IMG/VR virus record: IMGVR_UViG_2548876868_000016
Direction: 5' to 3' (one strand)
From: a virus
Lineage: Duplodnaviria; Heunggongvirae; Uroviricota; Caudoviricetes
Length of the DNA stretch: 5,193 nt
The translations under genes and the position numbers were made by a program. Positions 2,841 to 5,003 of this stretch are shown here, piece after piece; position 1 is the first letter of the stretch, and each line of letters opens with the position of its first letter. The notes beneath the pieces were generated by a model that saw nothing but the letters and a program-made list of their open reading frames with translations, searched no databases and was not told where the DNA came from.

Positions 2841-3104
2841 ATGTCATCTCAAAACTACACAGAGAAAGCAGTAAAGGCTGCGGGAAAGTCTTTATCTGAA
2901 GTAGCCCGTCGCTTTGGTTTTAAGTCCACTCAATCCGTCGCCAATTGGGTAATTAACAATCAAGTCCCGTCAGAACGGGTTTTACAACTTTGTGAGTTGG
3001 GAAACTGGTCCGTGACCCCTCATGAACTGCGTCCTGATATTTACCCCAATCCAAATGATGGATTACCTGAGTGCTATTCAAAAGTTAGCGGTTCAACTGC
3101 GTAA
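2841..3104 (+). CDS. Cro/YdaS-like small HTH transcriptional regulator
   Basis: 87-aa ORF, ATG 2841 with SD GGAG 6 nt upstream. HTH-like segment SLSEVARRFGFKSTQSVANWV; C-terminal HELRPD motif that I recall as typical of Cro/YdaS-type phage regulators. Divergent from the cI-like gene across an operator-bearing spacer. Confidence 0.8.
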   Translation: MSSQNYTEKAVKAAGKSLSEVARRFGFKSTQSVANWVINNQVPSERVLQLCELGNWSVTPHELRPDIYPNPNDGLPECYSKVSGSTA

Positions 3105-3132: not shown

Positions 3133-3717
3133 GTGGGTAAAGAACCTGAATGGAAAGTTGATAAGCAACCAGCATGGCTGGTGGCAGCAATACGAAGAAC
3201 GATTGCTGATTTACCTCATGGCTATGAGGAAGCAGCGGAAATTCTTGGTTTGTATAAATCTGATGATATCACCCCAGCGAAAGATCAATTGCATAACAGA
3301 CTGCGTAGCGGTGGGGATCAAATTTTTCCACTTGAGTGGGCCATGGTTTTACAGGATGCCAGTGGTACCAGGCATGTAACGGATGCGATAGCGCGTCGTA
3401 GTAATGGGGTGTTTGTGCCGCTGGTGGACATTGATGACATTGACAATGGTGACATTAATCAGCGGCTGATGGAGTCAATAGAATGGATTGGCAAGCATTC
3501 CCAGTACTTACGCAAGGCAACTGCTGATGGAGTTATTGACCAGGCTGAGCGTGAGCAAATCGAAGAGAACAGCTACCAAGTAATGGCGAAGTGGCAGGAG
3601 CATTTAACACTGTTATTTCGTGTTTTTTGTGCGCCGGAAAAGAGTAACGCCCGCGAGTGTGCAGCTCCGGGCGTCGTGGCGTCGATTGCTTCTGGTTGTG
3701 GAGAAACTAACGCATGA
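3133..3717 (+). CDS. CII-like / YdaT-like phage regulatory protein (family assignment tentative)
   Basis: 194-aa ORF, GTG start 3133 with SD GAGGA (3121-3125) 7 nt upstream. Sits directly after the cro-like gene, the slot of cII in lambdoid phages and of ydaT in Rac-type prophages. Stop codon overlaps the next start (ATGA at 3714-3717). Family not verifiable without an HMM search. Confidence 0.7.
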
Positions 3718-4072
3718 ACAGTTTAACAACACACTACCGTCGCTCGCAACTGATTGCGCTTCCTGTACCGGGTGGAAAAGCGAAGGTGGAGTATTGCTAT
3801 GCGGTGAATGTACCAGGTGACAGGGAAATTGTAACCCACAGCTTTGCAGAGTGGGCTGTGGGTGATTTCAACCGGCAGAAGGAGACAGTCCTTTGCAACA
3901 AGTTAACCGCTGGTTCAAAGATCACTACGGAGTGCCCGTCAGAGTCATTCGTTGGGAACCGGAAACACAACGGGTTATCTACCTCCGCGAAGGCTATGAG
4001 CATGAGTGCTTCAGCCCGCTCGAACAGTTTCGTCGTAAATTCAGGGAAATAGAGGTCGGTCATGAGCACTAA
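3714..4072 (+). CDS. Small phage protein of unknown function with a coding-frame switch (frameshifted gene or two overlapping ORFs)
   Basis: ATG 3714 is translationally coupled to the upstream gene (ATGA), with SD GGAG 3700-3703. The frame of ATG 3714 looks protein-like for ~60 codons ([60 protein letters not shown]) but then gives a Ser-rich low-complexity tail to the stop at 4050-4052. The -1 frame is open from 3866 to the stop at 4070-4072 and encodes a convincing sequence ([59 protein letters not shown]). A TTG at 3893-3895 is preceded by AAGGAGA (3879-3885) at 7-nt spacing. The span 3714-4072 is 359 nt, consistent with a 1-nt deletion at the T-run 3892-3894. Confidence 0.5.
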
Positions 4073-5003
4073 ATTAACCGGCTATGTATGGGATGGTTGC
4101 GCTGCGTCAGGCATGAAGTTATCCAGCGTGGCAATTATGGCCCGCCTGGCTGATTTCAGTAATGACGAAGGTGTGTGCTGGCCATCAATTGAAACCATTG
4201 CCCGCCAGATTGGCGCGGGGATGAGCACCGTCAGAACGGCTATCGCACGGCTGGAAGCAGAAGGCTGGTTAACGCGTAAGGCGCGTCGCCAGGGTAACCG
4301 CAATGCGTCGAATGTTTATCAGCTTAACGTTGCGAAGCTTCAGGCAGCGGCATTTTCTCAACTGTCAGATTCTGACCCGTCAAAATCTGACGCATCAAAA
4401 TCTGACCAGTCAAAATTTGATGCGTCGAAATCTGGCAAAAAAGCGGGTTTTCACCCGTCAGAATCTGGCGGGGATCCGTCAGTAAAATCAAAACATGATC
4501 CGTCAGATAAAAAAACTTCTCGTCCGGACGCTTCGCAACCGGACACGCAGACGGCTGAACAGGAGTTTTTAACTCGCCATCCTGATGCGGTTGTATTCAG
4601 CCCTAAAAAGCGCCAGTGGGGAACGCAGGATGATTTGACCTGCGCACAGTGGCTCTGGAAAAAAATCATCGCCCTGTACGAGCAGGCCGCCGAATGTGAC
4701 GGCGAGGTGGTTCGTCCCAAAGAACCGAACTGGACAGCCTGGGCAAACGAAATTCGCCTTATGTGTGTGCAGGATGGTCGTACTCACAAACAAATCTGCG
4801 AGATGTACAGCCGCGTCAGCCGCGATCCGTTCTGGTGCCGTAACGTGCTCAGCCCGTCGAAGCTGCGGGAAAAATGGGATGAGCTTTCCCTGCGCTTATC
4901 GCCGTCCGTCAGCACGTACACCGAAAAACGCGAAGACCCGTACTTCAAATCCAGTTACGACAACGTGGACTACAGCCAGATCCCGGCAGGATTCAGGGGG
5001 TGA
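4062..5003 (+). CDS. Replication initiator (lambda O-like; N-terminal winged-helix DNA-binding domain) with internal ori iterons
   Basis: 313-aa ORF, ATG 4062 with SD GAGGT (4052-4056) 5 nt upstream. N-terminal segment GVCWPSIETIARQIGAGMSTVRTAIARLEAEGWL resembles the HTH/winged-helix module of phage replication initiators. Iteron array inside the coding sequence encodes a low-complexity linker (SDSDPSKSDASKSDQSKFDASKSGKK). Gene order cro-cII-O matches lambdoid replication modules. Confidence 0.85.
   Translation: MSTKLTGYVWDGCAASGMKLSSVAIMARLADFSNDEGVCWPSIETIARQIGAGMSTVRTAIARLEAEGWLTRKARRQGNRNASNVYQLNVAKLQAAAFSQLSDSDPSKSDASKSDQSKFDASKSGKKAGFHPSESGGDPSVKSKHDPSDKKTSRPDASQPDTQTAEQEFLTRHPDAVVFSPKKRQWGTQDDLTCAQWLWKKIIALYEQAAECDGEVVRPKEPNWTAWANEIRLMCVQDGRTHKQICEMYSRVSRDPFWCRNVLSPSKLREKWDELSLRLSPSVSTYTEKREDPYFKSSYDNVDYSQIPAGFRG
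4365..4516. repeat. ori-like iteron array: five regular 15-bp-spaced iterons plus degenerate copies and an A-rich tract
   Basis: 12-bp cores at 4365 (TCAGATTCTGAC), 4380 (TCAAAATCTGAC), 4395 (TCAAAATCTGAC), 4410 (TCAAAATTTGAT) and 4425 (TCGAAATCTGGC), exactly 15 bp apart; each core is a partial palindrome of form TCAGA-w-TCTGA. Additional copies at 4458 (TCAGAATCTGGC) and, more degenerate, 4479 and 4503. A-rich tract GATAAAAAAAC at 4506-4516. Architecture parallels the lambda ori inside the O gene. Confidence 0.7.

Follow-up and report, generated by a model that had tools for sequence, protein, structure and literature searches.

How is the segment between positions 3714 and 4072 of the Caudoviricetes record IMGVR_UViG_2548876868_000016 decoded, given that its coding frame switches in mid-gene? 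The stretch analysed here (5,193 bases, referred to in its entirety as the window) comes from an e14-like lambdoid prophage of Escherichia coli, of which it represents the immunity and early-right region. Within it, an open reading frame (ORF) of 112 codons starts with ATG at 3714, where it overlaps the TGA stop codon of a ymfL-like regulatory gene (ATGA), and ends with TAG at 4050-4052. A second frame, offset by -1 (or, equivalently, +2) and open from position 3866, 27 nucleotides (nt) upstream of a TTG codon at 3893, ends with TAA at 4070-4072 and thereby overlaps a replication gene (ATG 4062) by 11 nt. An inspection of the letters alone (the sequence-only reading) had located these starts and stops, the 11-nt overlap and a Shine-Dalgarno motif, AAGGAGA, 7 nt upstream of the TTG, all of them correctly, and had offered as explanations a frameshift at a T-run, a recent inactivating indel, a sequencing error, or an overlapping pair of genes of which the second is initiated independently and encodes 59 residues. 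As set out below, the first ORF is ymfM, known from E. coli K-12, and the second belongs to the Pfam family DUF4222. We consider it likely, from comparison of sequences, that the two constitute a conserved overlapping pair and that the ymfM frame is, in addition, kept open across the embedded DUF4222 gene.

Both frames can be assigned by homology. The 112-codon ORF is the same gene as ymfM (b1148) of the e14 element in K-12 MG1655, where it is named 'cell division inhibitor YmfM' and is also known as the SOS-inducible SfiC; orthology was established from sequence (108 of 112 residues) and from gene order, the K-12 neighbours (a ymfK-like repressor, a ymfT-like cro, ymfL and an O-like gene) matching those in the window. 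Profile hidden Markov model searches of the 112-residue product against Pfam and NCBIfam matched no family, and the 59-residue product is a DUF4222 protein (PF13973; 67.8 bits at a cut-off of 27, E-value 6.1e-19, model positions 3-52 of 53). In PHROGs, the families are phrog_1170 for the 112 residues, phrog_20047 for the first 63 residues alone, and phrog_1343 for the 59 residues. Existing annotation is split between the two frames: the RefSeq record of MG1655 contains ymfM only, and genomes processed by the Prokaryotic Genome Annotation Pipeline (PGAP) contain the DUF4222 gene only, at exactly 3893-4072, with 3714-3892 left empty.

To which of the two frames protein-level selection applies was assessed by comparing the window with 16 relatives, using the ratio of the proportions of nonsynonymous and synonymous differences (pN/pS). 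Over the first ~55 codons, pN/pS in the ymfM frame is 0.33-0.5 for closer pairs; within the overlap, it is 0.07-0.3 in the DUF4222 frame (close to moderate pairs) and 1.2-8 in the ymfM frame. Likewise, among 55 distinct e14-type sequences, 15 of the 23 variable sites located before 3893 fall on ymfM codon position 3, and 13 of the 18 located after it fall on DUF4222 codon position 3, which is ymfM position 2. Hence, the coding frame switches at ~3893, as the sequence-only reading had claimed, and, with the DUF4222 match, the shift is far beyond chance. Protein-level conservation after 3893 resides in the -1 frame and not in the 112-codon frame, and by these measures the N-terminal module of YmfM is the only part of that protein under protein-level selection. 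The tail encoded by the overlap had been perceived as Ser-rich and degenerate, which agrees with its composition (11 Ser in 52 residues) and its high pN/pS; relative to K-12, the overlap DNA carries four amino acid changes in the tail and one in DUF4222. An AlphaFold model of YmfM has a mean predicted local distance difference test score (pLDDT) of 48.9, with strands and helices at pLDDT 50-70 for residues 7-66 and no secondary structure at pLDDT <40 for the tail, which is thus predicted to be disordered. The DUF4222 protein is predicted to be a small SH3/Tudor-like β-barrel (AlphaFold2 pLDDT 84.7).

What appears to be conserved in the ymfM frame beyond 3893 is the absence of stop codons. For this, 173 distinct core sequences of DUF4222 were drawn from collections of phages, viral contigs and genomes; we clustered them at 80% amino acid identity and classed them by upstream content only, a cluster being 'entered' if a ymfM-type ORF ('MNSLT...') of at least 50 codons reads into the DUF4222 start. 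In 12 of 12 entered clusters the ymfM frame is open for 52-57 codons, that is, to about the end of DUF4222, and this includes DUF4222 proteins that are 45-50% identical to that of the window; the frame is also open in 33 sequences at <90% nucleotide identity. Of the 15 clusters that are not entered in this way (the phiNP group, Morganella and others), 10 have 2-6 stop codons in that frame (Fisher's exact p = 0.002 for entered versus non-entered clusters). Resampling of synonymous codons yields a probability of 0.02-0.24 per cluster that 50 codons remain without a stop; multiplied over the 12 clusters, this gives ~1e-13 to 1e-14, which is an upper bound on the significance since the clusters are related.

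Codon choice points in the same direction. Among Val, Leu and Ile codons that precede a codon starting with A, none of 95 in the overlapped genes ends in A or G, C and T being common, versus 41 of 143 (29%) in harmless contexts of overlapped genes and 49 of 85 (58%) in DUF4222 genes that are not overlapped. Between clusters, the synonymous sites of DUF4222 are saturated (pS 0.63-0.70 for overlapped genes); when a constraint on the tail peptide was sought through this divergence, we found a slight reduction at most, compared with 0.67-0.79 for non-overlapped genes. Since the synonymous sites are saturated and the third (+2) frame over the same DNA contains 1-7 stops, it is one frame specifically that lacks stops, and this seems to be actively maintained. 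Both frames are maintained beyond chance, DUF4222 by amino acid conservation and the ymfM frame by the absence of stops, and selection for openness is, on these comparisons, the likely cause of the latter. The sequence-only reading is hereby extended in two respects, namely that the 112-codon frame is kept open by selection, as far as can be judged from sequences, and that it is the named gene ymfM.

Consistent with two genes rather than one, initiation signals exist for both frames, the ATGA overlap with ymfL for ymfM and the Shine-Dalgarno motif with TTG for DUF4222. The latter signals are shared: in 30 of 30 non-redundant overlapped lineages, DUF4222 starts with ATG, GTG or TTG (ATG or GTG in most relatives) and is preceded at 5-10 nt by a purine-rich GGAG, GAGG or GGGG tract. 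E. coli, Klebsiella, Raoultella, Citrobacter portucalensis and Pantoea all share the frame offset of the window, which is kept down to 45-50% DUF4222 identity. Moreover, the two modules occur separately. Stand-alone genes of 59-65 residues for the N-terminal module are present in Hafnia phage yong2, a Providencia phage, Morganella, Xenorhabdus and the Citrobacter phiNP group, where they are start-coupled to the CII-like gene or lie just 3' of it and end on the start of whichever gene comes next. In the phiNP group a rha gene lies between the module and DUF4222, which itself lies just before the replication gene; in Morganella the stop of the module gene (63 residues) and the start of DUF4222 overlap as ATGA; in Providencia and Xenorhabdus the module occurs without DUF4222; and P4-like elements, e.g. 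that carrying RgdR/ECs1581, contain DUF4222 without the module. A protein search with the 59-residue N-terminal module gave no information on length, most of the ORFs retrieved being truncated or chimeric. We thus regard it as very probable, from sequence conservation, that 3714-4072 is a conserved out-of-frame overlapping pair with independent DUF4222 initiation, as the last of the earlier alternatives had it, and that this arrangement is ancient.

The other ways of reading the locus differ in what they would leave for the long frame to do. Were the true product a 119-residue fusion, whether made by programmed -1 ribosomal frameshifting or obscured by a recent indel or sequencing error, this would account for two adjacent halves, for a DUF4222 frame that is open before its TTG, for a Shine-Dalgarno-like sequence upstream, and for rare ORFs of 118-119 residues in public assemblies. 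The latter are, however, Logan or ENA singletons with shifts at three different positions, as expected of errors or sporadic mutations, and a single continuous ORF is otherwise absent from the relatives, so that we rejected an ancestral fused gene. Most relatives also lack the T-run and read ...NNATGCG... at that site, and a search for an X_XXY_YYZ slippery heptamer in the window and in 30 non-redundant relatives found none. In six lineages the DUF4222 frame is closed by a stop just 6 nt before the DUF4222 start, the start codon is conserved at the N-terminus of DUF4222, the zero frame goes on for 53 codons instead of stopping, and the modules are separate genes elsewhere; a programmed frameshift was rejected on the missing heptamer, the conserved start and these upstream stops. 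Nor do an error or a recent indel fit an arrangement that recurs in ~1,900 genomes at 95-99% identity and whose offset is conserved in distant genera, and we regard this entire group of explanations as scarcely credible. It is improbable, too, that significance is confined to DUF4222 and the first ~60 codons of ymfM, the long frame having arisen by accidental read-through once the TGA of an ancestral ATGA junction was lost and being open by chance or shared ancestry. In line with such an origin, the Morganella ORF does end at ATGA on the DUF4222 start, an unrelated upstream ORF likewise ends at the DUF4222 start in locus L215, the tail lacks sequence conservation, and the +1 frame is open as well in some DUF4222 genes that no such ORF enters. 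Yet chance would have to leave all 12 clusters open at the per-cluster probabilities given above and despite saturated synonymous sites, to avoid the risk codons completely where the same genes use them in harmless contexts, and to do so in a frame that acquires 2-6 stops in non-overlapped genes.

Somewhat less remote, though still unlikely in our judgement, is that the tail is functional by virtue of its length or composition, the 112-residue product requiring it for division inhibition or stability and thereby keeping the frame open. The frame is open in every overlapped lineage, expression of the 112-codon ORF gives filamentation, and the tail is rich in Ser, Thr, Ala and Gly across lineages, all of which would be expected if this were so. 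On the other hand, (i) pN/pS of the tail and its low pLDDT without secondary structure argue for a peptide that is not constrained, (ii) homologues of the N-terminal module function as stand-alone genes of 59-65 residues, the tail thus being dispensable there, (iii) conserved DUF4222 codons, when read in +1, produce just this composition (e.g. REGYEHEC becoming KAMSMSA), and (iv) the clones that give filamentation carry DUF4222 too. A conserved overlapping pair with a ymfM frame selected for its openness remains the reading that we prefer.

Variants of the locus were also seen. Two mosaic YmfM proteins (P0099 and P0105) carry an e14-type tail after an N-terminal module that resembles that of mEp390 or SfV, which indicates recombination at the module junction with preservation of the two-frame arrangement. 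A natural variant, L177 (IMG/VR contig 3300011527_000007), has a stop at codon 2 of DUF4222 and an intact ymfM-type frame across DUF4222.

What an open frame might serve is suggested by the place at which it ends. In most lineages the ymfM stop codon, TAG or TAA, is followed by (A)GG and precedes the ATG of the replication gene by 9 nt (sometimes 3 nt), in the same frame, so that the stop forms part of the Shine-Dalgarno sequence of the downstream gene. This junction, TAG/TAA-(A)GG-N3-6-ATGAGC, is conserved before four different types of downstream gene. A second type of arrangement has an ATGA overlap between the DUF4222 stop and the start of the next gene, the ymfM frame being closed 11 nt further on. 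On the reading that we prefer, ymfM is translated by coupling to ymfL through the ATGA overlap, and DUF4222 very probably independently from its own Shine-Dalgarno sequence and TTG. It is tempting to speculate that ribosomes started on ymfL and ymfM would pass through DUF4222 and terminate within the Shine-Dalgarno sequence of the replication gene (TAG-AGG-N6-ATG). Such passage could couple translation of the replication gene to the early operon, and initiation of DUF4222 would probably be modulated, too, by the ribosomes running over its start. We put forward ribosome delivery as the reason for the open frame only tentatively, as an idea somewhat more doubtful than probable. A bolder version, in which the 160-nt overlap is a conserved 'ribosome relay' that gates DUF4222 initiation, with openness alone being selected, and in which the SfiC division block would moreover stem wholly or partly from DUF4222, must be considered unlikely.

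Several points weigh against the interpretation advanced here. The kinship of the clusters means that the product of probabilities overstates their independence, and the support for translation of either frame is all comparative. The +1 frame over DUF4222 is, in addition, stop-free without an entering ORF in loci L112, L223, L228 (of the Yersinia YeP2 type), L224, L226, L235 and L207, in which the upstream small ORF stops before the DUF4222 start or lies in another frame; these could result from recent truncation of an overlapped arrangement or from another cause, and they imply that some openness arises or persists without the cause that we propose. As for coupling, the constant position of the ymfM stop represents a single homologous junction and is hence not independent evidence, and RNA folds around the starts of DUF4222 and of the O-like gene are no more stable than those of shuffled sequences (z -1.05 and -0.11), which provides no structural basis for it. 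The former z-score is that of the fold of 3850-3950, which served also as the check for a frameshift stimulator.

The +1 frame over DUF4222 was further observed to run on into a Phage_ASH (and Rha) domain in SfV (L107, 1052-1888), ST64B (L108, 1058-2215), an Stx2a phage (L109) and Hafnia phage yong2 (L005, 2996-3679), from which it follows that ORFs annotated there as 'transcriptional regulator' and 'Ash family' contain an entire DUF4222 gene out of frame. Candidate internal starts lie near the DUF4222 stop, e.g. ATGATGATTGA in yong2, and the annotated N-termini may therefore be over-extended. Given these candidate starts, we dropped the notion that the Ash-domain proteins of SfV-type phages require read-through of DUF4222.

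The overlap also affects how the SfiC phenotype is to be interpreted. When expressed from pBAD24, the ymfM ORF blocks Z-ring formation and causes filamentation, deletion of ymfM shortens the SOS filaments of a sulA mutant, and in this work the 339-bp ORF was handled as a single gene (Ansari et al., bioRxiv 10.1101/2020.11.19.390815). Of DUF4222, the cloned ORF includes the Shine-Dalgarno sequence, the start and 53 of the 59 codons, the original shotgun clone carries the whole gene, and the deletion presumably removes most of the gene. Since the published constructs and the deletion thus carry or remove both frames, the assignment of SfiC to YmfM is ambiguous. In contrast to the gene as published, the second half of ymfM is seen here as the out-of-frame coat of a conserved DUF4222 gene.

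Out-of-frame pairs are well known from phages, e.g. Rz/Rz1 of lambda, D/E and A/B/K of phiX174, and L of MS2. With these, the present pair shares the use of two frames on one strand, an embedded gene with its own ribosome-binding site, and conservation in relatives. It differs in that both products of Rz/Rz1 and D/E are functional proteins, whereas amino acid conservation is found here in the DUF4222 frame only, the other frame being conserved just as an open frame that ends in the next Shine-Dalgarno sequence. Programmed -1 frameshifting is exemplified by dnaX and by the G/GT tail chaperone of lambda; the -1 frame following a zero frame and the Shine-Dalgarno-like sequence upstream are reminiscent of these, but the locus has no slippery heptamer and its -1 ORF possesses conserved initiation signals of its own. 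The sole studied member of the DUF4222 family is RgdR (ECs1581) from prophage CP-933C of enterohaemorrhagic E. coli (EHEC), which activates LEE1, represses motility and binds DNA weakly (Flockhart et al. 2012, PMC3378721); as a regulator encoded by a prophage, it controls type III secretion and motility in EHEC (PMC3378721, PMC10877973). RgdR and the DUF4222 protein of the window share the Pfam family and 41% identity over 49 residues, and both genes adjoin and overlap a downstream replication gene. RgdR, however, comprises 99 residues and is encoded in a P4-like element without an overlapping ymfM-type ORF, and from sequence its activities cannot be inferred for the 59-residue protein. In E. 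coli O157 Sakai, rgdR (L273, 3720-4019) was seen to overlap the start of the DNA primase gene by 4 nt; DUF4222 genes thus lie directly before a replication gene in both lambdoid and P4-like elements.

Both ORFs are already in databases, never together, and it is not the existence of an out-of-frame overlap that is new. New is that, as the comparisons indicate, the ymfM frame is maintained free of stops over a conserved embedded gene while its own peptide is not conserved, and a search of the literature found no paper noting the ymfM/DUF4222 overlap and no ribosome-profiling or proteomic data on both products. It is of importance in this context that ymfM, as the long-sought sfiC, has been named and studied in K-12, and that the published DNA does not settle which product inhibits the Z ring; three single-base changes would separate the products, and the SfiC assignment needs such frame-specific mutants. 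More generally, the pair provides a clean and well-sampled case of an alternative frame that is kept open without conserving a peptide, which is relevant for the origin of overlapping genes, for translational coupling in phage early operons, and for the annotation of such pairs by pipelines.

The features of the window are collected in the table. The stretch 3600-4200, used as query, matches E. coli O157 strain FDAARGOS_293 with 100% identity, and ~1,900 complete E. coli genomes contain it at the identities given above. The minus-strand ORF at 3797-4069 had been regarded as the antisense shadow of DUF4222, and rightly so: it lies in register, and almost every DUF4222 gene, with or without an overlapping ORF, lacks stops in this antisense frame, for which reason we rejected the ORF as a gene.

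Table. Positions of genes and sequence elements in the 5,193-base window.
Feature	Position	Strand	Basis or remark
ParA-family gene	710-1795	minus	
cI/LexA-like repressor	2030-2791	minus	
cro/YdaS-like gene	2841-3104		
ymfL-like (CII/CP76-like) regulatory gene	3133-3717	+	NCBIfam phage_reg_YmfL (E 2.7e-54); Pfam Phage_CP76; ORF list
ymfM ORF, 112 aa	3714-4052	+	108/112 residues identical to K-12 b1148; phrog_1170 (E 1e-69)
N-terminal YmfM module, ~59 aa	3714-3890	+	phrog_20047 (63 aa); stand-alone homologues elsewhere
Antisense shadow ORF, not a gene	3797-4069	minus	Codon register of DUF4222
Shine-Dalgarno AAGGAGA of DUF4222 gene	3879-3885	+	7 nt 5' of TTG 3893
DUF4222 gene, 59 aa, TTG start	3893-4072	+	Pfam PF13973; PGAP WP_001188051.1
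Two-frame overlap, Ser-rich YmfM tail in +1 relative to DUF4222	3893-4052	+	Stop-free; amino acids not conserved
ymfM TAG fused to AGG (TAGAGG), Shine-Dalgarno region of replication gene	4050-4055	+	9 nt before ATG 4062, same frame
O-like replication initiator	4062-5003	+	Pfam HTH_36 (E 4e-11), DnaD_N; 'DNA replication protein O' in phage records

Scans of the window with Rfam and for tRNAs gave no match, including in positions 1-709, and a search for internal promoters or terminators yielded none that was credible. These first ~700 bases carry no annotated gene, are GC-rich for ~360 bases and AT-rich thereafter, and belong to a gene-free stretch of ~1 kb that lies between yfdP and the ParA-family gene in the source genome. 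Finally, the O-like gene contains, at 4380-4520, imperfect 'SDxSKSDxSK' peptide repeats (tcaaaatctga repeats in the DNA), as seen by eye in the translation only; iteron-like repeats of such kind are often located inside lambdoid O genes.

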